Assembly: GCA_046563655.1 (NCBI GenBank)
Contig: CM102286.1
Coordinates: forward strand, 8,246,001-8,310,000
Direction of reading: 5' to 3'
Length of the DNA: 64,000 bases
Source of the DNA: Yuukianura sp. NJ FZ-2021
Taxonomy: Eukaryota
The notes under the pieces were generated by a model. The model saw only the letters and a list, made by a program, of their open reading frames with translations, made no database searches and was not told where the DNA came from. The first letter of the stretch is position 1; every line of letters begins with the position of its first letter. Positions 22,334 through 53,360 of the stretch are shown one piece after another. Position numbers and translations under genes: made by a program.

Positions 22334-22335
22334 GA

Positions 22336-22345
22336 TGGCGACCGT
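22336..22345 (+). promoter_or_regulatory. Primer-binding site of Gypsy B, tRNA-Arg-like
   Basis: TGGCGACCGT, 2 nt after the LTR, resembles the tRNA-Arg PBS of mdg1/412-type elements (from recall; not checked against host tRNAs). Confidence 0.7.
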
Positions 22346-22510
22346 TAGTGAGTGTCTCCAGCGACGACAGTGAGGTCAAGAGGTCAAGAGCGAAATTCAG
22401 AAGTTACTGTGGTAACTTTCCCTGTACATATAGCATTAGAGCCGTTTCAAACAGCTCTCTAATTGTCCATAAGCCACTGTCGTGGCTCCATTCTGTTCAT
22501 TCGGACATAA

Positions 22511-27498: not shown

Positions 27499-27548
27499 TT
27501 TACTGTGTCCTAAAAAGTCAAATTGTTGACTACAATCTCCATTTCATC

Positions 27549-29297: not shown

Positions 29298-29352
29298 CAG
29301 CTCGTCGTCAAGAGATTGCTCGCCGTACTGCTGTTCGTCGGAGCAACTCTTT

Positions 29353-29363
29353 GGAGGGGAAGG
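29353..29363 (+). promoter_or_regulatory. Polypurine tract of Gypsy B
   Basis: GGAGGGGAAGG immediately before the 3' LTR. Confidence 0.85.
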
Positions 29364-29803
29364 TGAAGCAGCCGCTCCCTTAGTTCAGGGTCATCCCCAG
29401 GTCAGGTCAGGGTGTGTCCCATAGTTAGTGTATATAGTATTCGTATTTAGTATTTTGTTTCGGGTGAGACGAGTTGCGAGCTCGGAGGGAGATTCGAGCA
29501 GAGGCATGTTTTGTGTGAGTTTAGTGTTAGTATAGAGCTTAGAGCTCAGTCTGGTTTTCGGTTTCGCTCAGAGAGCATATTAGAGTTATGTGTGCGCTGC
29601 TACGAGCAGTATATTTTGTATATATTCTTTATTGATCAGCTCAATAAATATATGTTTTATATTTATCTTCGCTGATCTTGTCGTCCGAGTTCCAGGGAGT
29701 TATTGTGTCGTTTGCTGGGCATGAGTCTGCGGACTCAGAGAGGAGTCTGATTTGGTGGTGGCCGTGGCCATTTTAGTGTTTCCGTAGCGCTGAGGGCGTT
29801 ACA
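29364..29803 (+). repeat. 3' LTR of Gypsy B
   Basis: Direct repeat of 21894-22333, followed by TSD GCAG. Confidence 0.98.
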
Positions 29804-29807
29804 GCAG

Positions 29808-31409: not shown

Positions 31410-31990
31410 TGTTGAGAATTACTCAGCATATCCCAAATGGGAATAGAAATAATTTTAATATCAATTTGAAATGGGTTTAGGTTTAACGGAAATTGAAAGT
31501 AGAATTAAGTTTTAACTTAGAAGTTAATTTGACCTCAGAAGAGAGGAGAAGAGAATTTAATGTAAGATGAGATGAGAAGTGTTCAAAGGGTTAATTTAAT
31601 CCACTTGTGTGGAATCAAAGGGAAAGGGTTAGCATCTACTATTAATGTGAAAATACTATTAGTGTACTACTGACATGCGCATTAGAGTTGGGATAGTATG
31701 TGTATGTAAAAGTCAACACTCTCTCAATCTTTTCTCAAGTTAAAATCAACGCTTTTCTCTCCCTCTTTTTTACACACACAAAAAGTACAAGAAAAGAAGA
31801 GAGTCTCCTACTAGCCTTTGCAGAGGCAGCAACTAACACATAGATTCTCACCTGTCACTTCTCGTTTTAGTCACTTTTCAATTAGAAATTTTAGAGAGTA
31901 ATGTTAGTTTTCAAGTTCTATTATTAAATAAATCAATCAATACGAAATCGTTCAGTGTTCAGAATCTGGCATTCCATCCAACAATCTTCA
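31410..31990 (+). repeat. 5' LTR of BEL/Pao element
   Basis: Direct repeat of 45772-46352 with 2 mismatches seen. Confidence 0.97.
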
Positions 31991-32001
31991 TGGTGCCGAA
32001 A
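31991..32001 (+). promoter_or_regulatory. Primer-binding site of BEL element, tRNA-Phe-like
   Basis: TGGTGCCGAAA directly after the LTR is complementary to the 3' end of eukaryotic tRNA-Phe. Confidence 0.7.
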
Positions 32002-32163
32002 GACGGTTACAGTGAGTCATAATCAATTCGACTGCCTGTTACACAAAGGATGACGAACCGATTTGGACATTGAACTGTAAGTGATTTGAACTTGAGTGCC
32101 TATAGTACCGTCACCACGGCGTCAGGAACGAGGTCACGAGTCAAGGCAGCAAGTATATCCAAC

Positions 32164-35100
32164 ATGGCGGACAAGAGCGATGATACTGGGACACCTAAGG
32201 CTGTTGCAGGAGTTGGAGCAGCAGGGACCAGCATTAGCGTAGTTCCGTCCACGGAAACCGAAACAATGAAGAAACTGGGAAGGTCACTCAAAGGATTTGG
32301 TCTTGACCTCCAGTATTTCCACATGAAAATAGAGGAACTTTCGACTTCCTCAACTGCAGTCACAGGGGCTGTCATTGCCATCGAACGTAAGAAACTTGAG
32401 AACTTTGAGTCTAAGTTGGGTTTGATTAGGCATGAAATTTACATGAATTGCGAAGACGACGACGAACTTCGTAAACAGGCAAAGGAAATTAACATTTGTG
32501 ACAAGTTCATTGAGAGAATTAGCACAAGGCTAATTTCCATTGAGTCAAAGGCTGGAGTCTGCACCACAGGGGGACAGAGCCAAACCAGTCAGATGAAGGT
32601 GAACATGCCCAAGTTGGAGTTACCTACATTCAACGGAAAATACGAGGAATGGTTAAGTTATAGGGACTTAATGCTAACCTACGTTGTGAATAATGCTTCT
32701 CTTTCAGGAAGCCAGAAATTAGGTTATCTACAACCAACCCTAAAGGGAGAGGCAGAGGAAACATTGAAGTACTTTGACCTCAGCAATGGATCCTTCGAGG
32801 AGGCTTGGGAGACGCTGAAGGAGCGTTACGAGAACCCTCGTCAAATTACATTTGCATTTTTGCAGAAAATGTTTAATTTCAAACCAATTGCGCAGGAGAC
32901 TCCTCAGTCTTTGCGTAAATTATTGGATGTCTTTAACATGTCCATTAGACAATTGCAGGTTCTGAAGGAGCCCGTGGATCAATGGGATTCCATACTAATT
33001 TTTTTGATTTTAGAAAAACTTTCGCCAGAGACGAAAAAAGAATGGACAAAGAATTTCAAAGGGACGAGCATGCCCGCATTTTCGGAGGTCAAGGACTTCC
33101 TGGAGGATTATTTAAGATCACTCACTGTCACTTCTGGTGATAAGCCGCGTGCTGACAGTCAGAAGGCGATTGACAAAAATAAGGAAAGGAAGGTTCACAC
33201 AGGGTCAAGCAGTCACCCGAAACCATGTCCTAAGTGTTCTGGAGAGCATGGATTGTTCAAATGTCCAGAATTTGGAGCCATGCCTCAGGATCAAAGGGAA
33301 AAATACGTAAGAACTAACAAACTTTGTTTGAACTGTTTAAGGCCTGCGCACACTGCAGAAAATTGTCGTGCTCCTTTCACTTGCGGAAAGTGTAAGAAGA
33401 AGCACAATACACTACTCCATCGTGAGAAACAACCACCAAGGTCAGAAAGTCAACAGGGAACTTCCACTGCAGCCAATCATTCCGCAGGCGCACGGGTTGT
33501 TTTAGCCACAGCCATTGTCAATGTGCAAAATTCCCTTGGAGATCTTCAAAGTTGTCGAGTGCTACTCGACCAAGGTTCGGAATCTAATTTCATTTCAGAA
33601 CGATGTGTCAAATTTTTAGGTTTGAATCGTCGTGGAACTGACGTCAGAATCACAGGGATTTCTGGAGCCATGGTGCAGAGGGCACTTGGAGAAACGTCAT
33701 TCCAAATTGAGTCAATGGCAAAAAATTACAAGTTCACTGTAAATGCTTTGATTTTACCCAAAGTAACAGGTACATTGCCATCATTTCAAATTAATCCGAG
33801 TGATTGGACATTTTTGGACGAATTGGAGTTGGCCGATCCGGAATTCTACAAACCAAATGATATTGACATTCTGATTGGAGGAGAATTCGTGGCTCGTCTC
33901 AAAACTGGTAAAAAGGTTCAAGGAGACCTTAATCATCCAGTAGCAGAAGAAACAGAACTCGGTTGGGTAATTTCCGGTCCAGTCAAACCAAGCCGTGTGG
34001 TGAGTGTGAACCACGCTTTAGTGGAAACTAATCAGATTTTGCAGAAATTTTGGGAATTGGAGAATGTCCCACACCACCAGCCACTGACAGTAGAGGAGAA
34101 AGCCGCCGAGGCACATTTTGTAACCACTCACTCCAGAAATGACGACGGAAGGTATGTTGTCAAGTTGCCATTTAAACCAAATTGTCAAAATTTAGGTTCA
34201 TCCAGAGACATAGCCCTGCGACGGCTATACGGAATTGAACGAAGATTGGAAAAGCATCCAGAACATAAGGTCGAGTACCGTAAGTTCATGAACAATTACG
34301 TCGAACTTGGTCACATGGTCCAGGTTCCCAAGTTGGGGGCAGGTGAGGTGATGGGAGTAACCAATTATCTTCCACATCACTTTGTGCTCAAGGACACCAG
34401 CTCCACTACGAAATTGAGAGTCGTGTTTGATGGCTCTGCAGAAACGAGCAATGGAATTTCGCTCAACAAATGTCTAATGGTTGGTCCAACCGTACAAAAG
34501 GACATATTTTCCCATTTGCTCAATTTCAGGTCAAAGGCCATTGCTCTAAAGGCGGACATAGTCAAAATGTATCGTCAGTTTCTGGTTCACCCATTGGATC
34601 AAGATAAACAACGGATTCTCTGGAGAGACAGTCCGAAAGATGAAATCGAAGAATTTAAATTGACTACAGTCACCTACGGCACAAGTTCAGCGCCATTCCA
34701 TGCTGTCAGATGCTTAAATCAACTTGCCAATGATGAGCGACTTAAATTCCCAAGAGCAGCAGAGGTAATCAAAAATGATTTCTATGTTGACGATTTACTG
34801 ACAGCACTAGATACATCAACGGAGGCCAGTCAGATAATTGCTGACTTGACCAGTCTTCTGAGCCTTGGACGCTTAGAAATTTCAAAATTCGATTCTAATT
34901 CGAAAGAGGCGCTTAAAGATGTTCCTGAGGACAGGAGAGGCAAAAATGATCAATTCAGTGACCTTGATGTGGACAGGGTCTTAGGAGTATGCTGGGATTC
35001 AAATCTTGATGAATTCCACTTCCTTGGATTCACATCTCAGCCCATTGGAATTTTAACCAAGAGAATCATTTTGTCTAACATTTCTCGTGTCTTTGATCCT

Positions 35101-37386
35101 CTAGGTTTTTTAAGTCCTCTAACTGTTTGTATCAAGATTTATTTTCAGGATCTATGGGAGCATGACCACAGGGGTCAGAAGCTCAAATGGGATGACGAAA
35201 TCCCAACTGAATTACAACAGCCGTGGAGAGAGTACATTGACGGGTTAAGTAAAATTAAATTGATTAAAATCCCCAGATTCTTAGGATTAGGTGGGGCCAG
35301 CCAAGTAGAAGTACATGGATTTTCTGATTCATCGGAACATGCCTACTGTGCTGCTGTTTACATCAGATGTACTTTCCCAGACGGATCAATTACGACAAAT
35401 TTAGCAGCAGCGAAAACGAAAGTGGCTCCTGCCAAGCAAGTCAGTCTCCCAAGATTGGAACTGTGTGGGGCACTTCTGCTGTCAAGGTTGATTCCCAAGG
35501 TAATGGAATCACTTAATTTAAAATGTTCTATTTCAGCTTGGTCAGACAGTGAGACTGTTCTGAAATGGATTCGGAATTCATCTCGTCGTTTCGTCACGTT
35601 CGTTGCGAACAGAGTAGCTGAAATACAGGAAGTTCTACCAGTTGCATCCTGGAACTTCGTACCAGGAATCGAAAATCCGGCTGATCTTGGCACTAGAGGA
35701 ATCTGTGCAGAGGATTTAGCAAATTCATCGTTTTGGTGGAAGGGACCACTATGGTTAAGTGACCCATTGATACCTAATTTTGAGCCAGGGGGCAAGGTGA
35801 GTGAGCCTCCTGACTTAGAATTACGAAAGGTAAAGGTTAATTTGTCAATTGTGGAGTTAAATTTCATGTTGAGGTTCTCAATCCTCATGAGGCTTAATCG
35901 TGCAGTGGCATATGCCACAAGATTTATATTCAATTGCAGGAACAAGAAGTTAGGTCGAAGTCACAATGGAGACTTAACGGTAGCAGAAACTCACTCTGCA
36001 TTCATGGTTTGTGTCAGATCTGCCCAATGGGATGACTTTTGGGAAGAGATCACTTTACTTCAAAACGGGAAACAAATTGGTAAGAGTAGTTCCATCAGTT
36101 CACTTAATCCGTTTTTAGACAATGAAGGTGTACTGAGAGTCGGAGGCAGACTCCAGAATTCAGATGCTCCAGATGAGCAGAAACACCAAATCATCATCAG
36201 TGGACATCATTATTTGACACAACTAATCATTATGGACTACCACCGTAAGTTTCATCATGCCAATTACCAATTGCTCTGGTCCAATCTGTCGAGAAGGTTT
36301 TGGATCATTCGGGCCCGAGTAGCCATTCGGAACATCATTCGGAACTGCCTTCGTTGCAAGAGAATGAAGGCTAAAGTCACAGAACAACTGATGGGCAGCC
36401 TGCCCAAGGCCAGAGTCACTCCGTCATCACCATTCAGTCACTGTGGAGTTGACTATGCTGGACCGACTAAGCTCCAAGAAAAATATGGACGTGGGAAACG
36501 GCAGTTCAATGCCTATTTTTGCATCTTTGTATGCTTTACCACGAAAGCAGTTCACCTCGAGCCGGTGACTGATCTTACTACGGAGGCTTTCATAGCCACT
36601 TTGAAAAGATTCATTTCCAGGAGGGGCTTGAGTACTAATATTTATTCAGATTGTGGATCTAATTTTGTTGGTGCTGCTAATGAGTTGAAAGAGTGGCACT
36701 CAATTATTTCAAATTCTAAAATATTTGATTTCTTATCTTTTCAGGGTATTCAGTGGCATCTGAATCCACCTGATGCACCTCACATGGGAGGAATCTGGGA
36801 AGCAGGCGTGAAGTCTGCCAAATACCACATTAAGAGGGTCGTGGGAACTACTACATTGACCCTAGAGGAATACTACACACTGCTGACCAATGTGGAAGCT
36901 GTTCTCAATTCTCGTCCGATTTGTGCTAAGAGCCAGGATCCAGGAGACTACGAGGCACTGACTCCAGGCCATTTTCTAATTGGGAAGCCTCTGATGTCAA
37001 TTCCAGAACTGGATCTACGCGAAATCAAGGAGAATCGGCTTTCCCGTTGGCAGAGAGTTCAGCAGATGACTCAACATTTTTGGAAGCGCTGGAGCGCAGA
37101 ATACGTCAATACACTCCAACAGAGGAACAAATGGAAAACTACAGATGACAATTTGAAAGTTGGAGATCTCGTCCTGATCAAAGATGAAGATACTCCGCCT
37201 CTGAATTGGAAATTAGCAAGGATCTCAGCTGTATTCCCCGGAGAAGATGGGTTAGTCAGAACAGTGGAAGTATTTTGGAAGTCAGCTGAACTAAATCACA
37301 AGGGTGAAGTCATCAAACAGAAGGAACATGTCTACAAACGTCCAGTTGTAAGAATCTGCAAATTATTAGACAAAGAGGATTTGTAA
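32164..37386 (+). CDS. BEL/Pao gag-pol polyprotein (intact single ORF)
   Basis: DUF1759-like gag (MPKLELPTFNGKYEEW), three Cys/His knuckles, protease LLDQGS, RT FYVDD, Pao RNase H HGFSDSS, integrase (GVDYAGP, YSDCG, GGIWEAGV) and C-terminal WKRWSAEY. ORF open from 32086; first ATG at 32164. Confidence 0.97.
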   Translation: MADKSDDTGTPKAVAGVGAAGTSISVVPSTETETMKKLGRSLKGFGLDLQYFHMKIEELSTSSTAVTGAVIAIERKKLENFESKLGLIRHEIYMNCEDDDELRKQAKEINICDKFIERISTRLISIESKAGVCTTGGQSQTSQMKVNMPKLELPTFNGKYEEWLSYRDLMLTYVVNNASLSGSQKLGYLQPTLKGEAEETLKYFDLSNGSFEEAWETLKERYENPRQITFAFLQKMFNFKPIAQETPQSLRKLLDVFNMSIRQLQVLKEPVDQWDSILIFLILEKLSPETKKEWTKNFKGTSMPAFSEVKDFLEDYLRSLTVTSGDKPRADSQKAIDKNKERKVHTGSSSHPKPCPKCSGEHGLFKCPEFGAMPQDQREKYVRTNKLCLNCLRPAHTAENCRAPFTCGKCKKKHNTLLHREKQPPRSESQQGTSTAANHSAGARVVLATAIVNVQNSLGDLQSCRVLLDQGSESNFISERCVKFLGLNRRGTDVRITGISGAMVQRALGETSFQIESMAKNYKFTVNALILPKVTGTLPSFQINPSDWTFLDELELADPEFYKPNDIDILIGGEFVARLKTGKKVQGDLNHPVAEETELGWVISGPVKPSRVVSVNHALVETNQILQKFWELENVPHHQPLTVEEKAAEAHFVTTHSRNDDGRYVVKLPFKPNCQNLGSSRDIALRRLYGIERRLEKHPEHKVEYRKFMNNYVELGHMVQVPKLGAGEVMGVTNYLPHHFVLKDTSSTTKLRVVFDGSAETSNGISLNKCLMVGPTVQKDIFSHLLNFRSKAIALKADIVKMYRQFLVHPLDQDKQRILWRDSPKDEIEEFKLTTVTYGTSSAPFHAVRCLNQLANDERLKFPRAAEVIKNDFYVDDLLTALDTSTEASQIIADLTSLLSLGRLEISKFDSNSKEALKDVPEDRRGKNDQFSDLDVDRVLGVCWDSNLDEFHFLGFTSQPIGILTKRIILSNISRVFDPLGFLSPLTVCIKIYFQDLWEHDHRGQKLKWDDEIPTELQQPWREYIDGLSKIKLIKIPRFLGLGGASQVEVHGFSDSSEHAYCAAVYIRCTFPDGSITTNLAAAKTKVAPAKQVSLPRLELCGALLLSRLIPKVMESLNLKCSISAWSDSETVLKWIRNSSRRFVTFVANRVAEIQEVLPVASWNFVPGIENPADLGTRGICAEDLANSSFWWKGPLWLSDPLIPNFEPGGKVSEPPDLELRKVKVNLSIVELNFMLRFSILMRLNRAVAYATRFIFNCRNKKLGRSHNGDLTVAETHSAFMVCVRSAQWDDFWEEITLLQNGKQIGKSSSISSLNPFLDNEGVLRVGGRLQNSDAPDEQKHQIIISGHHYLTQLIIMDYHRKFHHANYQLLWSNLSRRFWIIRARVAIRNIIRNCLRCKRMKAKVTEQLMGSLPKARVTPSSPFSHCGVDYAGPTKLQEKYGRGKRQFNAYFCIFVCFTTKAVHLEPVTDLTTEAFIATLKRFISRRGLSTNIYSDCGSNFVGAANELKEWHSIISNSKIFDFLSFQGIQWHLNPPDAPHMGGIWEAGVKSAKYHIKRVVGTTTLTLEEYYTLLTNVEAVLNSRPICAKSQDPGDYEALTPGHFLIGKPLMSIPELDLREIKENRLSRWQRVQQMTQHFWKRWSAEYVNTLQQRNKWKTTDDNLKVGDLVLIKDEDTPPLNWKLARISAVFPGEDGLVRTVEVFWKSAELNHKGEVIKQKEHVYKRPVVRICKLLDKEDL

Positions 37387-37870
37387 GGAAACCATTTTAC
37401 TTAATTAATACTTAATTGTAAGTTAGGATTCGATTTAAGATTTAGGTTTCAATTTTTAATCAATTTTAAACGTAATTTTCAATTTTAAATCAAATTTAAC
37501 GTAAGTAGTTAGTTTGGTACTAGATTAAGGAAACTGAGAATTTTTAACTTGGCCGTTCGAGTAATTTTTAATTTAATTCTTATAATGCAAATCAGAAGTG
37601 ATCGTGAGTGTATGTGACCTGTGATTCCCAAGTGAATTGGATGCTGGCCAGAGTAGAATGCTTGTGTATCAAACCGCCTCATTTATTTATAGCACACGTA
37701 TGACTGAGAACCTATGCGCCACTCTACTACTGTAAGGTTAGGTTATGGAGGGGAAATAGCAAAAATGATAAAATATCACAAACAAAAATGTCGACAAAAA
37801 ATATCAAAAAACAAAAAAAAAGTCGAAAAGTCGAAAAAACAAGTAATGAAATTTTTTCATAGAAATTTCG

Positions 37871-38013
37871 AACATTGACTCTAGCCTAGTGTATAAGTGC
37901 TTGTACCTACTTCTCTACGGTCGCTGGTTCGAATACTACACGGGTCAACGCTTGTGGTTAATACGTGACAAGTACTTAGATACAAAACTGGGGTCAATGT
38001 TATTACTATTTTT
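37871..38013 (+). ncRNA. Putative Pol III-type structured RNA (tRNA-like A/B boxes); mirrored at ~45207-45349 on the minus strand
   Basis: A-box-like TAGCCTAGTGT (37882), B-box-like GGTTCGAATAC (37926), long terminal stem 37871-37884 / 37988-38001, and a T5 run at 38009-38013. Confidence 0.4.
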
Positions 38014-38299
38014 GGATTTTTGCTAAAGGATTAAAAAAAAAGTTCTTAATACTTTTCTTTAGAGAAACGTTTTTTGAAATTTTTTAAAATAGTTTTTTAG
38101 ACGTTGAAATTCTTGGAAGCGTCTTTTCTATAGAAAAACGTTTTTACTTAAAAGTTTCTTTTCAAAACACCGGTTCTCAAGAAAAACGTTTTTGAAAATT
38201 TTTAAATATAATTTTTCAAGCATTGTTTTGTGTGCTACTTAAACAGCGAGTTTTGAGACTAGCAATCATCAGTTCTGAAACCATTCTCAATCCGCAATC

Positions 38300-39178
38300 A
38301 TGACCATGGAGGGGTTTAGACCGTATATGGAAGTTTTAACACCATTTAGTGACATGGAAGATGTCATCGGCATCAAGATTGCTGGACACTCAATTCTGCT
38401 AGCAGCAGAGGAGCTGCCGATCGTCGTTGAAAAGCTAGTTAAAGCGTACATCGAAGCTGGGAGAATGATGAAGGATCTTCCACACTTTGAAAGAATCATG
38501 GCAAGGAACCGCAAGAATGGATTTCTCAAGTTATTCCGTGTTCTAGAACAACCACCAGCCTCGGAAATTCAAATAATGAAAGAAAAGCTTGATACACCTC
38601 TTCTTCCAATCCACTGCATTAAAAACGAGTCGGAACAAGTGTTTCTTATTCGAAGCGGTGGTCCTCTCACAGTGAACATTAGTGACATTCCTCTTCTGGT
38701 GGAGTCGCTTCTAAAGTGTGGCTGCTTTCCAACTTCTTATCCGGAACGGAATCTGGACGAGCTTATTCATGAAACAAAACGCGAATTCCTGGAAAAGCTA
38801 CGCAAGGAAGGTCTCAACACTTGTGTCAACAAAATTAAGAAAATGATTGGAAAGCTCGCAGGAACAAAACCAGAAGACAAGAAAATGCCTCCATACAAAA
38901 GCGAAAATCGTTTCAAAAGCATGTTTCGACAACGCAACTGCTGCTGTCCAACAATCGATGATACAATAATGCCGCGTTATAGAAAGCACATAGCGGACGT
39001 TACAAAAGACCAACAGGAGAGAATTAACAAACCAAGGATTGTATCAGAAGGAGATTTTGGGGACAGACAGCTTCAAAACCTCGAAACTTATCGATTAGCG
39101 CCATATTCTGCTAAAGTCAAGAGCATGATTATTCACCATGGTGTACATGATCGTTCTGCTTATGATACTTTCTGTTAA
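38300..39178 (+). CDS. Hypothetical protein (292 aa), left arm of Polinton-like element
   Basis: Long ATG-initiated ORF followed by AATAAA (~39219); mirrored at 44045-44921. No family recognised. Confidence 0.75.
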   Translation: MTMEGFRPYMEVLTPFSDMEDVIGIKIAGHSILLAAEELPIVVEKLVKAYIEAGRMMKDLPHFERIMARNRKNGFLKLFRVLEQPPASEIQIMKEKLDTPLLPIHCIKNESEQVFLIRSGGPLTVNISDIPLLVESLLKCGCFPTSYPERNLDELIHETKREFLEKLRKEGLNTCVNKIKKMIGKLAGTKPEDKKMPPYKSENRFKSMFRQRNCCCPTIDDTIMPRYRKHIADVTKDQQERINKPRIVSEGDFGDRQLQNLETYRLAPYSAKVKSMIIHHGVHDRSAYDTFC

Positions 39179-39356
39179 CTGAATTTCTGTATAGTTTAGT
39201 ATTACACCTTTACATGTGAATAAAATCCAAGATTTTAAATTTTTTGTTACATTGGGAAATTATTTATTGAACTCAAATTGTAAATTTAAACAAAACTTAA
39301 ACACAAATTAATAAATCAATGTTGTATAAAACTGTAAATTATTGTTGTGCTCAAAC

Positions 39357-41012
39357 TTATTTCCAATTGGCCGGAGGCTTCCACTCTTCCAGAAAAGTGT
39401 TATCCACACTAGACTCGCTCTCATTTTCATCTTCTTCTTCGCCATAACTCACACTGGGAGTTTCTTCGTCTTCACTCGTGTTGGAATCCTCTACATAACG
39501 CCTTTTCTTTCTAGGATTCACTCCTCGAAACGGCTGAAATAGGTACTGTCTTGCTTCAGGTAATTCATCTGTTGGAAATTTACGGGATTTCATAAACTGA
39601 ATCATTCCCGAAATCAATGCACCCTTTAGCCTGCGTCTGCCATCACTGATAACACGAATACCGTCTTCAAAGTCACATCGCTGCATTTGTTCACTGCCAA
39701 AAACAACAGTGTCCCCTTGAAGAATGGCTCCATTATTCACAAAAAACTGAAGCAGGTTTTGTCCTGGTTTTGGAAAGTTTGAAAAATTGAAGTCTTTTTG
39801 CTCCAGAATCGGGTTTGGCAACTCCGTTGTCTTGTGTTCTTCCATACCTTTCGCCTCAACTTCCAATGCGTTTGTGTCTTTCGAATGAACAGGCTTTTGT
39901 TGTTCCACGTTCCGTCTATTCTGGAATTGACGAAGAAGAGCATGGAGCATGTGGTTTTGAAGTTCAACTGATGTCTTTCCGTTGTCGAACTCGTCGTTCA
40001 GCTGAGTTACTTTTCTTTTCAGAAAATTTCTTTTTGCGTCACTCGCAAATGTTTCAAAGGGAATGGCTTCCTTTTTCTGTTCCATTGGCGACATCCACAC
40101 AGATTCATTCTGTGACGTATTCAAAGTCAATTTGTCATATTCTGCTTCCTCCAGCACCGTGTATGGGCATGTTTTGTCTTTAACATAAACGTTACACTTT
40201 TCAGGAAAAATATTGTCTCTAATGCGAAACAAATCATTCTGACGTTGTGTGAAATCTATAAAGAGGTATCCATAGTCTTTGGACATGCAACTTTTGTACG
40301 CGGTCTCCATCGTTGTATTTTTCTTTCCGCCATTCATTTGTCGCCCCAAGCAAGCAACAAACTGAGAGTCTCTAGGGTTCTTCATTAGAACCAAGTAATG
40401 ACAGTTTGCAGTAATTTCTTTTAAGTTCTTATGAAAAAAGTTTTGCACAAGAATAATGAGCGATACATTGCGGTGGTGAGATGTTCTAGTGAACGCAGTG
40501 CCAACTTCAGATTTCTTTCCAACTTCATGCATTAAATCATCCAGCACCACAAGGGACGGTTTATCAGATCCATCATGCCATTTATCCAGCAGCCCTTGGT
40601 GAAACTTTATTTGAGGCATGGCACATTTTAGTTGTGTAAACAAATCTGGCTGTAACTCTGTATAGCAGTATGTAACACGATTGAACTTTTCCCCAGTAGA
40701 CGTCACAATGATCTCATTCCGACGAAGGATGATTTCCTTAACCAGAGTACTTTTTCCGCTCTGAGTCATCCCGCTGATGCACATCGTAAAAGGAGCGCGT
40801 AAATGAGGATCAAATGTTGTCCCGGATAATTCGTCCATAAACAGCGATCCTTTGGCAGGCTCATCCGATACATATGTGGCAGGAGTCAAGTGATAAGCAA
40901 TGTTGTCGTTAATAGGAATGGGGACTTGCATAGTCCTGCATGTCGATTTGTGACGTTTAAAGTTATCCGACCGTCCAAACTTTTTTGAACAACCTGAACA
41001 ACTGTATTCCAT
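39357..41012 (-). CDS. C2H2-like zinc finger + A32/FtsK-family DNA packaging ATPase + C-terminal extension (left arm, intact)
   Basis: CSGCSKKFGRSDNFKRHKSTC; Walker A GMTQSGKS; Walker B LVVLDD; FTRTSHHRNVSLIILVQN; KNPRD…LGRQ; YGYLFIDF, as in Polinton/adintovirus ATPases. ORF open from 41072; ATG at 41012. Confidence 0.9.
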   Translation of the reverse strand: MEYSCSGCSKKFGRSDNFKRHKSTCRTMQVPIPINDNIAYHLTPATYVSDEPAKGSLFMDELSGTTFDPHLRAPFTMCISGMTQSGKSTLVKEIILRRNEIIVTSTGEKFNRVTYCYTELQPDLFTQLKCAMPQIKFHQGLLDKWHDGSDKPSLVVLDDLMHEVGKKSEVGTAFTRTSHHRNVSLIILVQNFFHKNLKEITANCHYLVLMKNPRDSQFVACLGRQMNGGKKNTTMETAYKSCMSKDYGYLFIDFTQRQNDLFRIRDNIFPEKCNVYVKDKTCPYTVLEEAEYDKLTLNTSQNESVWMSPMEQKKEAIPFETFASDAKRNFLKRKVTQLNDEFDNGKTSVELQNHMLHALLRQFQNRRNVEQQKPVHSKDTNALEVEAKGMEEHKTTELPNPILEQKDFNFSNFPKPGQNLLQFFVNNGAILQGDTVVFGSEQMQRCDFEDGIRVISDGRRRLKGALISGMIQFMKSRKFPTDELPEARQYLFQPFRGVNPRKKRRYVEDSNTSEDEETPSVSYGEEEDENESESSVDNTFLEEWKPPANWK

Positions 41013-41494
41013 TTTTATATTCACTACGACAAGGTGTTTACGCTCTATGAATCCTTTGTATCTGATTTCCACTCAGCGAGAAGAAAAGAGATAAAGAAAG
41101 AATATATCTTGTCCGCTTATGATCTGTGACTGAATGAATTCTCCATCAGCGTGTAGGACTTATACTCCTCCTCATCCTCCACACCCGGCTTCTCAGACAA
41201 CCCAAAACCACGCTTTTACTACTCCTCTTCCTCCTCCTCAGATAACTGAAGAGCATGCCTATACTCCTCCTCCTCCCCTCCTCTTCAAACAACTGAAGAG
41301 CAGGCCTATACTCCTCCTCCTCCCCTCCTGCTCAGATGACTGAAGAGCATGCCTATACTCCTCCTCGGCGGAAGAGCTTAGCGATACTCCTACTCCTCCT
41401 CCTCAGTCCAACACAGACCGGTCCATAACATCGCTCATCCTACACCCAACCTAACCTAACTTCATGGCATCATACTCGAATCATTTTATCTTAT

Positions 41495-41722
41495 TACACC
41501 GGACTTTTGTCAAACTGTGTTGTAATTTCAATAAACTACACTGGACTTTCGTCAAACTGTTTTGTAATTTCAATAAACTACATCGGACTTTTGTCAAACT
41601 GTTTTGTAATTTCAATAAACTACACTGGACTTTCGTCAAACTGTTTTGTAATTTCAATAAACTACACCGGAGTTTTCTCAAGATGTTTTGTAATTTCAAC
41701 CAATTACACTAGACTTTTCTCA
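41495..41722. repeat. 42-bp minisatellite (~5.4 copies) in the palindrome spacer
   Basis: Unit TACACYGGACTTTYGTCAAACTGTTTTGTAATTTCAATAAAC. Confidence 0.95.
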
Positions 41723-42211
41723 GTTGCCGGGGTATTTCCACCCCCAATACGTCGCTCTTGTGTAATGCTATGCATTGGGTGTAGGATGAGCGATGTTATG
41801 GACCGGTCTGTGTTGGACTGAGGAGGAGGAGTAGGAGTATCGCTAAGCTCTTCCGCCGAGGAGGAGTATAGGCATGCTCTTCAGTCATCTGAGCAGGAGG
41901 GGAGGAGGAGGAGTATAGGCCTGCTCTTCAGTTGTTTGAAGAGGAGGGGAGGAGGAGGAGTATAGGCATGCTCTTCAGTTATCTGAGGAGGAGGAAGAGG
42001 AGTAGTAAAAGCGTGGTTTTGGGTTGTCTGAGAAGCCGGGTGTGGAGGATGAGGAGGAGTATAAGTCCTACACGCTGATGGAGAATTCATTCAGTCACAG
42101 ATCATAAGCGGACAAGATATATTCTTTCTTTATCTCTTTTCTTCTCGCTGAGTGGAAATCAGATACAAAGGATTCATAGAGCGTAAACACCTTGTCGTAG
42201 TGAATATAAAA

Positions 42212-43866
42212 ATGGAATACAGTTGTTCAGGTTGTTCAAAAAAGTTTGGACGGTCGGATAACTTTAAACGTCACAAATCGACATGCAGGACTATGCAAGT
42301 CCCCATTCCTATTAACGACAACATTGCTTATCACTTGACTCCTGCCACATATGTATCGGATGAGCCTGCCAAAGGATCGCTGTTTATGGACGAATTATCC
42401 GGGACAACATTTGATCCTCATTTACGCGCTCCTTTTACGATGTGCATCAGCGGGATGACTCAGAGCGGAAAAAGTACTCTGGTTAAGGAAATCATCCTTC
42501 GTCGGAATGAGATCATTGTGACGTCTACTGGGGAAAAGTTCAATCGTGTTACATACTGCTATACAGAGTTACAGCCAGATTTGTTTACACAACTAAAATG
42601 TGCCATGCCTCAAATAAAGTTTCACCAAGGGCTGCTGGATAAATGGCATGATGGATCTGATAAACCGTCCCTTGTGGTGCTGGATGATTTAATGCATGAA
42701 GTTGGAAAGAAATCTGAAGTTGGCACTGCGTTCACTAGAACATCTCACCACCGCAATGTATCGCTCATTATTCTTGTACAAAACTTTTTTCACAAGAACT
42801 TAAAAGAAATTACTGCAAACTGTCATTACTTGGTTCTAATGAAGAACCCTAGAGACTCTCAGTTTGTTGCTTGCTTGGGGCGACAAATGAATGGCGGAAA
42901 GAAAAATACAACGATGGAGACCGCGTACAAAAGTTGCATGTCCAAAGACTATGGATACCTCTTTATAGATTTCACACAACGTCAGAATGATTTGTTTCGC
43001 ATTAGAGACAATATTTTTCCTGAAAAGTGTAACGTTTATGTTAAAGACAAAACATGCCCATACACGGTGCTGGAGGAAGCAGAATATGACAAATTGACTT
43101 TGAATACGTCACAGAATGAATCTGTGTGGATGTCGCCAATGGAACAGAAAAAGGAAGCCATTCCCTTTGAAACATTTGCGAGTGACGCAAAAAGAAATTT
43201 TCTGAAAAGAAAAGTAACTCAGCTGAACGACGAGTTCGACAACGGAAAGACATCAGTTGAACTTCAAAACCACATGCTCCATGCTCTTCTTCGTCAATTC
43301 CAGAATAGACGGAACGTGGAACAACAAAAGCCTGTTCATTCGAAAGACACAAACGCATTGGAAGTTGAGGCGAAAGGTATGGAAGAACACAAGACAACGG
43401 AGTTGCCAAACCCGATTCTGGAGCAAAAAGACTTCAATTTTTCAAACTTTCCAAAACCAGGACAAAACCTGCTTCAGTTTTTTGTGAATAATGGAGCCAT
43501 TCTTCAAGGGGACACTGTTGTTTTTGGCAGTGAACAAATGCAGCGATGTGACTTTGAAGACGGTATTCGTGTTATCAGTGATGGCAGACGCAGGCTAAAG
43601 GGTGCATTGATTTCGGGAATGATTCAGTTTATGAAATCCCGTAAATTTCCAACAGATGAATTACCTGAAGCAAGACAGTACCTATTTCAGCCGTTTCGAG
43701 GAGTGAATCCTAGAAAGAAAAGGCGTTATGTAGAGGATTCCAACAGAGTGAAGACGAAGAAACTCCCAGTGTGAGTTATGGCGAAGAAGAAGATGAAAAT
43801 GAGAGCGAGTCTAGTGTGGATAACACTTTTCTGGAAGAGTGGAAGCCTCCGGCCAATTGGAAATAA
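42212..43866 (+). CDS. Zinc finger + packaging ATPase, right-arm copy (1-bp deletion near 43746 shifts the acidic tail; stop at 43774)
   Basis: Reverse-complement copy of 39357-41012; CAACAGAGTG here versus CAACACGAGTG in the left arm. Confidence 0.88.
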
Positions 43867-44044
43867 GTTTGAGCACAACAATAATTTACAGTTTTATACA
43901 ACATTGATTTATTAATTTGTGTTTAAGTTTTGTTTAAATTTACAATTTGAGTTCAATAAATAATTTCCCAATGTAACAAAAAATTTAAAATCTTGGATTT
44001 TATTCACATGTAAAGGTGTAATACTAAACTATACAGAAATTCAG

Positions 44045-44921
44045 TTAACAGAAAGTATCATAAGCAGAACGATCATGTACACCATGGTGAATAATCATGC
44101 TCTTGACTTTAGCAGAATATGGCGCTAATCGATAAGTTTCGAGGTTTTGAAGCTGTCTGTCCCCAAAATCTCCTTCTGATACAATCCTTGGTTTGTTAAT
44201 TCTCTCCTGTTGGTCTTTTGTAACGTCCGCTATGTGCTTTCTATAACGCGGCATTATTGTATCATCGATTGTTGGACAGCAGCAGTTGCGTTGTCGAAAC
44301 ATGCTTTTGAAACGATTTTCGCTTTTGTATGGATGCATTTTCTTGTCTTCTGGTTTTGTTCCTGCGAGCTTTCCAATCATTTTCTTAATTTTGTTGACAC
44401 AAGTGTTGAGACCTTCCTTGCGTAGCTTTTCCAGGAATTCGCGTTTTGTTTCATGAATAAGCTCGTCCAGATTCCGTTCCGGATAAGAAGTTGGAAAGCA
44501 GCCACACTTTAGAAGCGACTCCACCAGAAGAGGAATGTCACTAATGTTCACTGTGAGAGGACCACCGCTTCGAATAAGAAACACTTGTTCCGACTCGTTT
44601 TTAATGCAGTGGATTGGAAGAAGAGGTGTATCAAGCTTTTCTTTCATTATTTGAATTTCCGAGGCTGGTGGTTGTTCTAGAACACGGAATAACTTGAGAA
44701 ATCCATTCTTGCGGTTCCTTGCCATGATTCTTTCAAAGTGTGGAAGATCCTTCATCATTCTCCCAGCTTCGATGTACGCTTTAACTAGCTTTTCAACGAC
44801 GATCGGCAGCTCCTCTGCTGCTAGCAGAATTGAGTGTCCAGCAATCTTGATGCCGATGACATCTTCCATGTCACTAAATGGTGTTAAAACTTCCATATAC
44901 GGTCTAAACCCTCCATGGTCA
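44045..44921 (-). CDS. Hypothetical protein, right-arm copy (1-bp deletion near 44910; ORF from second Met at 44896)
   Basis: Reverse-complement copy of 38300-39178 with one P>H change. Confidence 0.72.
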
Positions 44922-45771
44922 TGATTGCGGATTGAGAATGGTTTCAGAACTGATGATTGCTAGTCTCAAAACTCGCTGTTTAAGTAGCACACAAAACAAT
45001 GCTTGAAAAATTATATTTAAAAATTTTCAAAAACGTTTTTCTTGAGAACCGGTGTTTTGAAAAGAAACTTTTAAGTAAAAACGTTTTTCTATAGAAAAGA
45101 CGCTTCCAAGAATTTCAACGTCTAAAAAACTATTTTAAAAAATTTCAAAAAACGTTTCTCTAAAGAAAAGTATTAAGAACTTTTTTTAATCCTTTAGCAA
45201 AAATCCAAAAATAGTAATAACATTGACCCCAGTTTTGTATCTAAGTACTTGTCACGTATTAACCACAAGCGTTGACCCGTGTAGTATTCGAACCAGCGAC
45301 CGTAGAGAAGTAGGTACAAGCACTTATACACTAGGCTAGAGTCAATGTTCGAAATTTCTATGAAAAAATTTCATTACTTGTTTTTTCGACTTTTCGACTT
45401 TTTTTTTTGTTTTTTGATATTTTTTGTCGACATTTTTGTTTGTGATATTTTATCATTTTTGCTATTTCCTCTCCATAACCTAACCTTACAGTAGTAGAGT
45501 GGCGCATAGGTTCTCAGTCATACGTGTGCTATAAATAAATGAGGCGGTTTGATACACAAGCATTCTACTGCCAGGTCTAGCAAAGACTAGCCTGCCCGCT
45601 CCCAGGCGAGGGACTTAGTCCACCCCTCAGGTCACCGAGGTCAGTTGATGGTTCACTTCCCTACGTCTGTCCTTGTATGAGTGAAGTAACAATCATTTTT
45701 GATTTCATTTTTGCACTTGTGCATTTTATTTTGATTTTTGGATTTGAACTGAGATTCAAATCGGAGGCCAG

Positions 45772-46352
45772 TGTTGAGAATTACTCAGCATATCCCAAAT
45801 GGGAATAGAAATAATTTTAATATCAATTTGAAATGGGTTTAGGTTTAACGGAAATTGAAAGTAGAATTAAGTTTTAACTTAGAAGTTAATTTGACCTCAG
45901 AAGAGAGGAGAAGAGAATTTAATGTAAGATGAGATGAGAAGTGTTCAAAGGGTTAATTTAATCCACTTGTGTGGAATCAAAGGGAAAGGGTTAGCATCTA
46001 CTATTAATGTGAAAATACTATTAGTGTACTACTGACATGCGCATTAGAGTTGGGATAGTATGTGTATGTAAAAGTCAACACTCTCTCAATCTTTTCTCAA
46101 GTTAAAATCAACGCTTTTCTCTCCCTCTTTTTTACACACACAAAAAGTACAAGAAAAGAAGAGAGTCTCCTACTAGCCTTTGCAGAGGCAGCAACTAACA
46201 CATAGATTCTCACCTGTCACTTCTCATTTTAGTCACTTTTCAATTAGCAATTTTAGAGAGTAATGTTAGTTTTCAAGTTCTATTATTAAATAAATCAATC
46301 AATACGAAATCGTTCAGTGTTCAGAATCTGGCATTCCATCCAACAATCTTCA
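45772..46352 (+). repeat. 3' LTR of BEL/Pao element
   Basis: Direct repeat of 31410-31990, followed by TSD GATGC. Confidence 0.97.
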
Positions 46353-48743: not shown

Positions 48744-51700
48744 ATATGTTGAACACTATACGGCAAGATGAACCCAAAGACGAAGTCATGACCACAGGAA
48801 ATCCCTATAACGCATTTATTTGTTCCAAAAACAGCATGAAATGGTAATACTTTAATTTGTTGTTCGTATGTGCAACGGCGGAACACTTTTTGGCTTCAGA
48901 GAATAGAAAACCCCCATAGTGTCACTCAAGGTGCACATGAATAACAATGTGCTATAATAGCTGTACATATGTTGCACAATATTCGGCAAGATGAACCCGA
49001 ACAAGAAGGTAAGACCACAGGAATTCCCTATAACGCATTTGTTTATTCCCCCCACAGCATGAAATTGTATTACTTTATTTGGTTGTTCGTATGTGCAACG
49101 ACGGAACACTTTTTGGTTTCAGCGAATGGAGACCCCTCATAGTGTCACTCAAGGTGCACAGGAATAACAATATGCTATAAAAGCTGAACATAGGTTGCAC
49201 ACTATACGGCAAGATGAACCCAAAGACGAAGTTATTACCACAGGACATCCCTATAACGCATTTATTTGTTCCAAAAACAGCATGAAATTGTATTACTTTA
49301 TTTGGTTGTTCGTATGTGCAACGACGGAACACTTTTTGGTTTCAGCGAATGGAGACCCATCATAGTGTCACTGAAGGTGCACAGGAATAAAAATGTGCTA
49401 TAAAAGATGTAGATATGTTGAATACTATACGGCAAGATGAACCCAAAGACGAAGTCATGACCACAGGAAATCCCTATAACGCATTTATTTGTTCCAAAAA
49501 CAGCATGAAATGGTAATACTTTGATTTGTTGTTCGTATGTGCAACGGCGGAACACTTTTTGGTTTCAGCGAATGGAAAACCCCCATAGTGTCACTCAAGG
49601 TGCACATGAATAACAATGTGCTATAATAGCTGTACATATGTTGCACAATATTCGGCAAGATGAACCCGAACAAGAAGGTAAGACCACAAGAATTCCCTAT
49701 AACGCATTTGTTTATTCCCCCCACAGCATGAAATTGTATTACTTTATTTGGTTGTTCGTATGTGCAACGACGGAACACTTTTTGGTTTCAGCGAATGGAG
49801 ACCCCTCATAGTGTCACTCAAGGTGCACAGGAATAACAATATGCTATAAAAGCTGAACATAGGTTGCACACTATACGGCAAGATGAACCCAAAGACGAAG
49901 TTATTACCACAGGACATCCCTATAACGCATTTATTTGTTCCAAAAACAGCATGAAATTGTATTACTTTATTTGGTTGTTCGTATGTGCAACGACGGAACA
50001 CTTTTTGGTTTCAGCGAATGGAGACCCCTCATAGTGTCACTCAAGGTGCACAGGAATAACAATATGCTATAAAAGCTGAACATAGGTTGCACACTATACG
50101 GCAAGATGAACCCAAAGGCGAAGTTATTACCACAGGACATCCCTATAACGCATTTATTTGTTCCAAAAACAGCATGAAATGGTAATACTTTGATTTGTTG
50201 TTCGTATGTGCAACGGCGGAACACTTTTTGGTTTCAGCGAATGGAAAACCCCCATAGTGTCACTCAAGGTGCACATGAATAACAATGTGCTATAATAGCT
50301 GTACATATGTTGCACAATATTCGGCAAGATGAACCCGAACAAGAAGGTAAGACCACAAGAATTCCCTATAACGCATTTGTTTATTCCCCCGACAGCATGA
50401 AATTGTATTACTTTATTTGGTTGTTCGTATGTGCAACGACGGAACACTTTTTGGTTTCAGCGAATGGAGACCCCTCATAGTGTCACTCAAGGTGCACAGG
50501 AATAACAATATGCTATAAAAGCTGAACATAGGTTGCACACTATACGGCAAGATGAACCCAAAGGCGAAGTTATTACCACAGGACATCCCTATAACGCATT
50601 TATTTGTTCCAAAAACAGCATGAAATTGTATTACTTTATTTGGTTGTTCGTATGTGCAACGACGGAACACTTTTTGGTTTCAGCGAATGGAGACCCCTCA
50701 TAGTGTCACTGAAGGTGCACAGGAATAAAAATGTGCTATAAAAGCTGTAGATATGTTGAACACTATACGGCAAGATGAACCCGAACAAGAAGGTAAGACC
50801 ACAAGAATTCCCTATAACGCATTTGTTTATTCCCCCCACAGCATGAAATTGTATTACTTTATTTGGTTGTTCGTATGTGCAACGACGGAACACTTTTTGG
50901 TTTCAGCGAATGGAGACCCCTCATAGTGTCACTCAAGGTGCACAGGAATAACAATATGCTATAAAAGCTGAACATAGGTTGCACACTATACGGCAAGATG
51001 AACCCAAAGGCGAAGTTATTACCACAGGACATCCCTATAACGCATTTATTTGTTCCAAAAACAGCATGAAATTGTATTACTTTATTTGGTTGTTCGTATG
51101 TGCAACGACGGAACACTTTTTGGTTTCAGCGAATGGAGACCCCTCATAGTGTCACTGAAGGTGCACAGGAATAAAAATGTGCTATAAAAGCTGTAGATAT
51201 GTTGAACACTATACGGCAAGATGAACCCAAAGACGAAGTCATGACCACAGGAAATCCCTATAACGCATTTATTTGTTCCAAAAACAGCATGAAATGGTAA
51301 TACTTTAATTTGTTGTTCGTATGTGCAACGGCGGAACACTTTTGGGTTTCAGCGAATGGAAAACCCCCATAGTGTCACTCAAGGTGCACATGAATAACAA
51401 TGTGCTATAATAGCTGTACATATGTTGCACAATATTCGGCAAGATGAACCCGAACAAGAAGGTAAGACCACAGGAATTCCCTATAACGCATTTGTTTATT
51501 CCCCCCACAGCATGAAATTGTATTACTTTATTTGGTTGTTCGTATGTGCAACGACGGAACACTTTTTGGTTTCAGCGAATGGAGACCCCTCATAGTGTCA
51601 CTCAAGGTGCACAGGAATAACAATATGCTATAAAAGCTGAACATAGGTTGCACACTATACGGCAAGATGAACCCAAAGACGAAGTTATGACCACAGGACA

Positions 51701-53360
51701 TCCCTATAACGCATTTATTTGTTCCAGAAACAGCATGAAATTGTATTACTTTATTTGGTTGTTCGTATGTGCAACGACGGAACACTTTTTGGTTTCAGCG
51801 AATGGAGACCCCTCATAGTGTCACTCAAGGTGCACAGGAATAACAATATGCTATAAAAGCTGAACATAGGTTGCACACTATACGGCAAGATGAACCCAAA
51901 GACGAAGTTATTACCACAGGACATCCCTATAACGCATTTATTTGTTCCAAAAACAGCATGAAATTGTATTACTTTATTTGGTTGTTCGTATGTGCAACGA
52001 CGGAACACTTTTTGGTTTCAGCGAATGGAGACCCCTCATAGTGTCACTGAAGGTGCACAGGAATAAAAATGTGCTATAAAAGCTGTAGATATGTTGAACA
52101 CTATACGGCAAGATGAACCCGAACAAGAAGGTAAGACCACAAGAATTCCCTATAACGCATTTGTTTATTCCCCCCACAGCATGAAATTGTATTACTTTAT
52201 TTGGTTGTTCGTATGTGCAACGACGGAACACTTTTTGGTTTCAGCGAATGGAGACCCCTCATAGTGTCACTCAAGGTGCACAGGAATAACAATATGCTAT
52301 AAAAGCTGAACATAGGTTGCACACTATACGGCAAGATGAACCCAAAGGCGAAGTTATTACCACAGGACATCCCTATAACGCATTTATTTGTTCCAAAAAC
52401 AGCATGAAATTGTATTACTTTATTTGGTTGTTCGTATGTGCAACGACGGAACACTTTTTGGTTTCAGCGAATGGAGACCCCTCATAGTGTCACTGAAGGT
52501 GCACAGGAATAAAAATGTGCTATAAAAGCTGTAGATATGTTGAACACTATACGGCAAGATGAACCCAAAGACGAAGTCATGACCACAGGAAATCCCTATA
52601 ACGCATTTATTTGTTCCAAAAACAGCATGAAATGGTAATACTTTAATTTGTTGTTCGTATGTGCAACGGCGGAACACTTTTGGGTTTCAGCGAATGGAAA
52701 ACCCCCATAGTGTCACTCAAGGTGCACATGAATAACAATGTGCTATAATAGCTGTACATATGTTGCACAATATTCGGCAAGATGAACCCGAACAAGAAGG
52801 TAAGACCACAGGAATTCCCTATAACGCATTTGTTTATTCCCCCCACAGCATGAAATTGTATTACTTTATTTTGTTGTTCGTATGTGCAACGACGGAACAC
52901 TTTTTGGTTTCAGCGAATGGAGACCCCTCATAGTGTCACTCAAGGTGCACAGGAATAACAATATGCTATAAAAGCTGAACATAGGTTGCACACTATACGG
53001 CAAGATGAACCCAAAGACGAAGTTATGACCACAGGACATCCCTATAACGCATTTATTTGTTCCAGAAACAGCATGAAATTGTATTACTTTATTTGGTTGT
53101 TCGTATGTGCAACGACGGAACACTTTTTGGTTTCAGCGAATGGAGACCCCTCATAGTGTCACTCAAGGTGCACAGGAATAACAATATGCTATAAAAGCTG
53201 AACATAGGTTGCACACTATACGGCAAGATGAACCCAAAGACGAAGTTATGACCACAGGAAATCCCTATAACGCATTTATTTGTTCCAAAAACAGCATGAA
53301 ATGGTAATATTTTATTTGGTTGTTCGTATGGGCAACGACGGAACACTTTGATTTCAGTGA
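48744..53360. repeat. 223-bp satellite, right block (~21 monomers), ending in a diverged monomer
   Basis: Resumes in register with the monomer interrupted at 19592 and decays at ~53310-53360. Confidence 0.98.

Follow-up and report, generated by a model that had tools for sequence, protein, structure and literature searches.

A 64,000-nucleotide stretch of DNA from Yuukianura sp. NJ FZ-2021 (contig CM102286.1, positions 8,246,001 to 8,310,000 of the forward strand; the whole stretch is hereafter called the window) contains a near-perfect palindrome of 7.9 kb (7918 bases), and this element is a real, non-autonomous, palindromic derivative of a Polinton/adintovirus. Each of its two arms carries a gene for a predicted packaging ATPase and an orphan open reading frame (ORF), here named ORF-U, and the whole lies within a BEL/Pao long terminal repeat (LTR) retrotransposon. 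We think it reasonably probable that one end of a Polinton/adintovirus genome was duplicated in inverted orientation around a 325-bp turn-around, that this product had formed before integration, and that it was then inserted in trans.

Architecture of the palindrome

The arms account for 7593 of the 7918 bases of the element (96%). A repeat search of the window recovered them as five abutting inverted blocks, which together make up 37652-41449 and 41775-45569, and a global alignment of the left arm (3798 bases) with the reverse complement of the right arm (3795 bases) gave identity in 3790 of 3799 columns. The differences comprise four substitutions (37751, 38889, 40431 and 40446) and four insertion or deletion events amounting to 5 bases, three of the latter events falling in mononucleotide runs. 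Between the arms lies a unique, asymmetric spacer of 325 bp (41450-41774), within which a 42-bp unit is repeated in tandem (5.4 copies, 41495-41722). A near-complete palindrome with a short unpaired turn-around is the form taken by snap-back or copy-back genomes.

At the start of the element the junction reads GCCAG followed by AGTAGAATG, and at its end CATTCTACT followed by GCCAG, giving AG...CT termini within a 5-bp direct duplication. A flank match of 5 bases has a chance of about 1 in 1024, the boundary of the element being set by the end of the repeat. Within the 64-kb window the 27-base terminus is confined to the outer extremities of the element, one copy at each, against 0 occurrences expected by chance; two head-to-head insertions of a 4-kb unit were ruled out on this ground. 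A preliminary description of this DNA had reported arms of 3798 and 3795 bp with about four substitutions and four small indels, a 325-bp spacer, AG...CT ends and a GCCAG duplication, and the global alignment and a direct reading of the junctions agree with it on each of these points.

A single insertion in a BEL/Pao retrotransposon

The palindrome is situated between the stop codon of the BEL pol gene (37386) and the 3' LTR, i.e., in the 3' untranslated part of the host element. The two BEL LTRs, each of 581 bp (31410-31990 and 45772-46352), are 99.66% identical (2 of 581 positions differ), and both flanks of the palindrome belong to one continuous BEL 3' region that ends in the 3' LTR. Contigs of four public sequencing runs, all of them short, were aligned to positions 37300-41840. 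Three of the runs (X1, X2 and X4) represent one sample of organism A, which is probably the source of the assembly, and the remaining one (X3) comes from organism B and a different study. In both X3 and X4, a contig tracks the left flank as far as 37651, with a single GCCAG, and beyond that point matches window positions 45575-45604, the right flank after the second GCCAG, at 28 of 30 letters. Other BEL copies thus exist in which the site is unoccupied and GCCAG occurs once, and it follows that the 7.9 kb arrived in a single insertion that duplicated 5 bp. The preliminary description had taken the clean duplication as a sign of integration as a unit, had expected empty BEL copies with a single GCCAG, and had held that the different flanks together with the duplication argue against an assembly fold-back; the empty copies in two organisms and the continuation of one BEL through both flanks uphold these expectations.

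The same data bear on whether the palindrome could be an artefact of reads or assembly, namely a fold-back chimera or a mis-join between copies of the family. There are reasons to ask, since the family is repeated, the region is rich in satellite DNA, the length differences between the arms fall mainly in mononucleotide runs, and the centre of the palindrome is without independent read confirmation. A chimera, however, would be followed by an inverted left flank. What follows the palindrome instead is the remainder of the same BEL, which runs on into the 3' LTR, and at the empty site the left and right flanks meet precisely. Moreover, the spacer is unique and asymmetric and is not an adapter, and both states of two arm differences (the substitution at 40431 and a length difference at 39478) are present in the contigs. 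Inverted repeats are also known to produce mis-assembled inversions and not the loss of a middle. We give an artefact very little chance.

Another possibility is that the palindrome was formed in place, in which case an element with short terminal inverted repeats (TIRs) was inserted with the GCCAG duplication and host repair, either by fold-back or by gene conversion between the inverted ends after a break, subsequently duplicated one side in inverted orientation. The target duplication and the empty site demonstrate only the joint arrival of two outer ends, and inverted repeats have been described as driving rearrangements of this type (PMC10164571, PMC6103520). Against this, the process would require the capture of a second end in the absence of visible homology, there being no microhomology at 41774/41775. 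With 4 differences in 3790 aligned bases, the arms are less divergent than the older host LTRs (2 of 581), which fits arms that were identical at integration, although arms at least as alike as the LTRs are compatible with either route. Formation in place seems to us improbable.

Gene content of the arms

Each arm contains two long ORFs, ORF-U reading inward and the ATPase gene reading outward, and the remaining 25 of the 27 stop-to-stop frames of at least 50 codons that overlap 37652-41774 do not exceed 130 codons. A Pfam scan that covered the two long ORFs of each arm and an 82-codon ORF in the spacer returned no family of polymerases, integrases, proteases or capsid proteins. Specifically, DNA_pol_B_2 had no match in either long ORF, rve integrase had none in the element ORFs scanned, and neither major or minor capsid genes nor an adenain protease gene were found in the element. 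Polintons are defined as encoding a protein-primed DNA polymerase B (pPolB) and an integrase (PMC5499653). Since the window element lacks genes for all four (polymerase, integrase, protease and capsid), it must have relied on a full-length relative for replication, integration and any packaging.

Kinship of the ATPase and of the termini

The left copy of the ATPase combines a C2H2 zinc finger (residues 3-23), an A32/FtsK-type ATPase domain (approximately residues 70-280) and a tail of about 270 aa. It matches Pfam PF04665 (Pox_A32) at 23.9 bits, the cut-off being 22.8, while zf-C2H2 stays under its cut-off. In an alignment of 25 sequences the protein (P0001) keeps all 22 of 22 invariant columns, including G81, G86 and K87 of the Walker A motif and D158 and D159 of the Walker B motif. 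The right copy has a one-base length difference relative to the left arm near codon 512, and the resulting frameshift leaves it with a shorter tail.

Homologues were sought with the first 300 residues of the ATPase among proteins shorter than 303 aa. Matches at E<=1e-3 were obtained for 227 of 508 candidates, the best being 72% identical, and the sole virus-named match among the 120 listed is the FtsK of an Orchesella springtail adintovirus (46% identity, E ~1e-54). A profile scan of metagenome contigs yielded 507 relatives, of which 80 were retained. In IMG/VR, a protein search returned no close relatives and a profile search returned one distant locus from a giant-virus metagenome-assembled genome (MAG); a sequence search of PDB yielded nothing beyond weak matches to zinc fingers (E of 0.11 or more). 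The tail (residues 285-551) found no match in Atlas and is matched only by P0003 and P0004.

A phylogeny of 49 rows was reconstructed from the query, 34 of 129 database proteins spanning the range of identity, 13 ORFs from related loci and the giant-virus MAG outgroup, which served as root. The query falls in a four-row clade with P0003, P0004 and P0012 (Shimodaira-Hasegawa-like approximate likelihood ratio test, SH-aLRT, 99), and this clade is nested in one of 22 rows (SH-aLRT 98) that includes the adintovirus FtsK and the ATPase of locus L004. This position places the predicted protein among the packaging ATPases of the Polinton/adintovirus clade, within the FtsK-HerA/A32 family.

The surroundings of related ATPases were surveyed through 50 ORFs of at least 200 aa in 10 longer loci, out of 101 ORFs listed in 19 loci. 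An rve integrase, mostly with a chromodomain, adjoins the ATPase in 8 of the 10 longer loci, and in three of these 10 (L014, L044 and L050) a DNA_pol_B_2 polymerase does so in addition. L004, which is among nine shorter but closer loci and has an ATPase 61% identical to the query, shows the order rve, 166-aa ORF, ATPase. The architecture of zinc finger, ATPase and long tail is likewise seen in L020 and L038.

AG...CT ends are the rule in the Polinton family, and the element possesses terminal inverted repeats with 5'-AG...CT-3' ends (AGTAGAATG...CATTCTACT). L017, a relative of 15.3 kb, has AGTAGTGG at both ends and shares AGTAG with the AGTAGAATG of the window element. It is the only one of 81 related loci with inverted repeats of at least 150 bp, its TIRs measuring about 0.65 kb. 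The AGT repetition of this terminus may echo the reiterated ends on which jumping-back in protein-primed replication relies. The adintovirus FtsK clade, the rve and pPolB neighbours and the AGTAG shared with L017 together establish the Polinton/adintovirus kinship of the predicted ATPase and of the terminus. The preliminary description had proposed this grouping, as well as an inward ORF of unknown kind and an outward packaging ATPase in each arm and the lack of pPolB, integrase, protease and capsid genes; all three proposals stand.

These results also bear on the suggestion that the element is a long-TIR or foldback-type DNA transposon outside the Polintons which captured a viral ATPase gene. 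Such an identity would accommodate the lack of pPolB and integrase, the orphan status of ORF-U and a 5-bp duplication that is not specific to Polintons. It does not sit well with an AGTAG terminus common to the rve-bearing 15-kb relative L017, nor with the finding that no transposase-like ORF is present, nor with arms made of unique sequence, unlike the subrepeat arrays of Foldback elements. We regard it as scarcely credible.

Several features of the related loci were recorded in their own right. L017 (1-15051, a metagenome contig) is apparently a complete Polinton of about 15 kb, with a 1170-aa ORF, an ATPase, an rve-chromo integrase and ORFs of 269 and 441 aa. The loci with the closest ATPase relatives (L002, L003, L004, L007 and L008) share a neighbour protein of about 420-480 aa, 30-68% identical and belonging to no Pfam family; this is possibly a capsid protein, does not match ORF-U and is absent from the window element. 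Cargo-like ORFs occur beside related ATPases in L040 (1707-2294, minus strand), with a TATA-binding-protein domain (PF00352, E 3.6e-33), and in L007 (758-1546, plus strand), with a PI-PLC X domain.

ORF-U and variation within the family

The two copies of ORF-U are distinguished by a one-base difference in a G run, which abolishes in the right copy the upstream start used in the left, and by one P/H difference at codon 197. ORF-U could not be assigned to a Pfam or PHROG family at a useful E-value, had 0 matches among 668 word-sharing candidates in a collection of 5.8 billion proteins and 0 matches when all 1.84 billion representatives were searched with HMMER, and gave no usable match in Atlas. 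A single-sequence AlphaFold2 model reached a mean predicted local distance difference test (pLDDT) score of 33, which is too poor for a fold search. ORF-U nevertheless behaves as a real gene under purifying selection, since 10 of the 11 variants listed for it in the read contigs are synonymous third-position changes (binomial p 1.3e-4).

This count, and those for the ATPase, refer to 40 variable sites listed of 398, and sites linked on one contig cannot be treated as independent. In the ATPase gene 6 of 17 listed variants are synonymous, among them 2 of 2 in the ATPase core, and the 11 replacements concentrate in two segments, the linker (residues 46-65) and residues 302-407. Across the copies of the family, both genes are under purifying selection. 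A length variant of the same gene (40000-40053) skips 52 bases and adds one, a net change of 51 bases or 17 codons that keeps the frame, and is found in all four runs. Contigs with loose ends at 39348 in three runs were considered as evidence of a different neighbour gene; this was ruled out, as the sequence continues in frame as a diverged ATPase C-terminus (...PPNWK stop), which implies that other copies retain the same gene pair. Two rarer arrangements were also seen. In X1 and X2, an ATPase-tail variant (39389-39738) skips 348 bases, in whose place stand 16 different letters. In one X1 contig, 41322 is followed by 29 letters of other sequence and then by 39275, an order that reflects a rearranged or tandem ATPase cassette in some copy.

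The arm sequence as a whole is multi-copy and diverse. In X1, 336 contigs were aligned, comprising 98 at an identity of at least 99%, 102 at 95-99% and 136 at 90-95%, and the identity spreads in X2, X3 and X4 are similar. Both the BEL empty site and arm-like contigs occur in X3, together with a fraction of 0.19 of the sampled 31-letter words of the stretch, which indicates that the BEL and arm families are common, and nearly identical, to two organism labels. One contig of organism B follows the window as far as position 41743, which lies in the spacer, and then runs through 87 unlike letters; the spacer thus has another continuation elsewhere.

In each of the four runs, the summed depth of contigs is higher over 37756-38059 (a stretch with a mirror copy in the right arm) than in the neighbouring bins to either side, and loose ends or skips fall within this stretch at 37802, 37968, 38012 and 38047. 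In the same stretch ARAGORN found 0 tRNA genes and Rfam gave 0 matches at E<=1. It may be a repeat resembling a short interspersed element, either embedded in the terminal region or shared with it.

Origin of the element

From the architecture and the gene content we infer, as the preliminary description did, a copy-back origin and the action of a helper. In the simplest route, a truncated linear replication intermediate of a full-length relative would have turned around once, by a template switch of the polymerase or by fold-back priming. The product would consist of an arm, a short loop and an arm, i.e., a snap-back genome, and the palindrome would predate integration. With its two identical ends this product could have been inserted by an rve integrase acting in trans, entering the 3' part of the BEL as a single 7.9-kb unit with a 5-bp duplication. 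Each arm has kept the terminal non-coding region, presumably the site of both the replication origin and the end recognized by the integrase, as well as the convergent pair of ORF-U and the putative zinc-finger packaging ATPase. Defective adenovirus genomes with long inverted repeats exist. Subgenomic molecules of phi29, 1-8 kb in length and derived from one genome end, have been ascribed to polymerase template switching (PMC4974454), and the definition of a snap-back defective genome is that of a near-complete palindrome (PMC13506859).

A parent with gene-bearing TIRs of about 3.8 kb, each including ORF-U and the ATPase, could also have given rise to the element by internal deletion of its unique middle, save for 325 bp. 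Gene-bearing TIRs of about 2 kb, which carry hexon and adenain twice, are described for butterfly polintons, whose polB-less derivatives are still mobile (10.1101/2025.02.07.637071). The multi-copy state of the arm sequence in reads and the different spacer continuation from 41743 in the contig of organism B would likewise be compatible with such a parent. However, two events would be needed, with both end-points within 325 bp of the inner TIR borders, whereas a single turn-around yields the structure directly. Furthermore, no long-TIR parent was seen, inverted repeats of at least 150 bp being present in 1 of the 81 related loci and reaching about 0.65 kb there. Internal deletion thus appears doubtful, although we allow it some weight.

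It should be noted that several observations weigh against a copy-back product of a Polinton/adintovirus. Neither a parent nor an autonomous partner was found: viral and metagenome contigs contained no close full-length relative, and the terminal 19-mer had 0 matches in viral_contigs. The full-length relatives seen have the ATPase in the middle of the genome, flanked by polymerase and integrase, and not 1.7-3.4 kb from an end, so that the genes of the parent would have to be ordered differently. None of the 81 related loci encodes a counterpart of ORF-U (tblastn, best E 0.48), and microhomology was looked for at the turn-around (41774/41775) and none was found. The three arm indels in mononucleotide runs could be consensus errors. 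No listed contig spans the arm-spacer-arm junctions, the contigs being short, and the sample behind the assembly is probably also the source of three of the four runs. Polinton duplications are 5-6 bp long in some accounts. That of the present element is exactly 5 bp (GCCAG), as against the 6 bp called typical for Polintons in another account (PMC3014272).

The copy-back account can be extended to a propagating adintovirus satellite lineage, in which the snap-back genome would have been replicated, packaged and integrated by a helper and its two copies of the ATPase and the orphan gene would have helped it to compete with the helper for capsids. This extension we hold to be rather unlikely.

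Features of the element and its surroundings

The features of the element and of its host retrotransposon are collected in Table 1.

Table 1. Coordinates of the palindromic element, its predicted genes and its host BEL/Pao retrotransposon in the window
Feature	Position	Strand	Remarks
Host BEL/Pao LTR retrotransposon	31410..46352	+	TG...CA ends; 5-bp duplication GATGC
Target-site duplication GCCAG, left copy	37647..37651	.	direct reading and empty-site contigs
Left arm, 3798 bp	37652..41449	+	terminus 5'-AGTAGAATG; repeat search, alignment
Non-coding terminal region, left arm	37652..38299	.	mirrored at 44912-45569; A-rich tract
Box-B-like motif in terminal region	37926-37936		
Repeat of about 20 bp around AAAAACGTTTTT in terminal region	38055, 38126, 38174		three copies
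ORF-U, left copy, 292 aa	38300..39178	+	reads inward
Intergenic stretch between convergent genes	39179..39356	.	178 bp; AATAAA at 39219 (+) and 39263-39268 (-)
Predicted ATPase, left copy, 551 aa	39357..41012	-	reads outward
47-bp repeats, upstream of ATPase start	41185..41370	.	3-4 copies; mirrored at 41858-42043
Spacer (turn-around)	41450..41774	.	325 bp, unique
Right arm, 3795 bp	41775..45569	-	reverse complement of left arm
Predicted ATPase, right copy, 520 aa	42212..43774	+	tail shortened
ORF-U, right copy, 283 aa	44045..44896	-	length counted from first ATG
Target-site duplication GCCAG, right copy	45570..45574	.	direct reading and empty-site contigs

The BEL/Pao element is itself part of a nest of retroelements (19590-48743) that interrupts a 223-bp satellite extending over 1-19592 (87.9 copies) and 48744-53349 (20.7 copies). 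An outer Gypsy-type element (451-bp LTRs, 99.3% identical) encloses both a second Gypsy-type element at 21893-29804 (442-bp LTRs, 99.8% identical) and the BEL/Pao, whose insertion interrupts the integrase gene of the outer element, such that young elements are nested three deep. Downstream of pol, the inner Gypsy-type element has an additional 603-aa ORF (27486-29294, plus strand) in which a 3'-5' exonuclease domain is recognized (PF01612, E 1.6e-28); LTR retrotransposons do not usually carry such a gene. Beyond the satellite, a 192-codon open frame with EF-hand domains (55216-55791, minus strand) is possibly a fragment of a host gene.

Significance

Polintons/adintoviruses are thought to replicate as linear, protein-primed genomes. 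To our knowledge, direct traces of this replication in animals are scarce, and there are few descriptions of non-autonomous Polinton derivatives whose genes are intact. A fully palindromic Polinton derivative was not encountered in the full-text literature searched, which omits most subscription journals and Repbase, and this is no proof of absence. If one genome end was indeed copied back and integrated with a clean duplication, then protein-primed replication makes snap-back genomes and the Polinton integrase can insert them in trans. Should the element belong to a satellite lineage, endogenous copies would constitute a fossil record of defective-interfering DNA-virus genomes in the animal germ line. 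Both ORF-U, which is under purifying selection, and the ATPase in its long form with a zinc finger, which recurs in other loci, are therefore candidate carriers of new accessory functions. In addition, a near-perfect palindrome of 7.9 kb is likely to be a fragile site and a trap for assemblers and annotators.

Comparison with known systems

In the Drosophila Foldback (FB) element the arms are arrays of short subrepeats and the target duplications are 9 bp long. The window element is similar in that long inverted arms form most of its length, but its arms are unique coding sequence with short local repeats only, and its duplication is 5 bp.

Polintons/Mavericks, which are the adintoviruses, resemble the window element in the A32/FtsK-type ATPase clade, in having TIRs and in an AG-starting terminus (AGTAG in L017); a short target duplication would fit an rve integrase. 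They differ in measuring 15-20 kb and encoding pPolB and integrase, whereas the window element is 7.9 kb long and is without these genes, a protease or a capsid gene. Its TIRs also make up 96% of its length, and its duplication is 5 bp against the typical 6 bp (PMC3014272).

Two kinds of Polinton derivative offer closer parallels. Butterfly polintons likewise have whole genes duplicated within long TIRs, and their polB-less derivatives show insertion polymorphism, but their TIRs flank a large unique middle, whereas the window element has a middle of 325 bp and arms with the ATPase and the orphan gene (10.1101/2025.02.07.637071). The Polinton_CE_TIR sequences of C. elegans are also Polinton-derived insertions that keep the ends in the absence of core genes; these are described as non-coding pieces of 744 bp, while the window element is two-ended, with a duplication and intact-looking genes (10.1101/2024.01.15.575659).

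Snap-back or copy-back genomes and the subgenomic DNA of phi29 are likened to the window element by its near-complete palindrome, which would derive from one genome end, and by its presumed dependence on a helper (PMC13506859, PMC4974454). Those molecules are free replication products in infections, whereas the window element is chromosomal and flanked by a target duplication.

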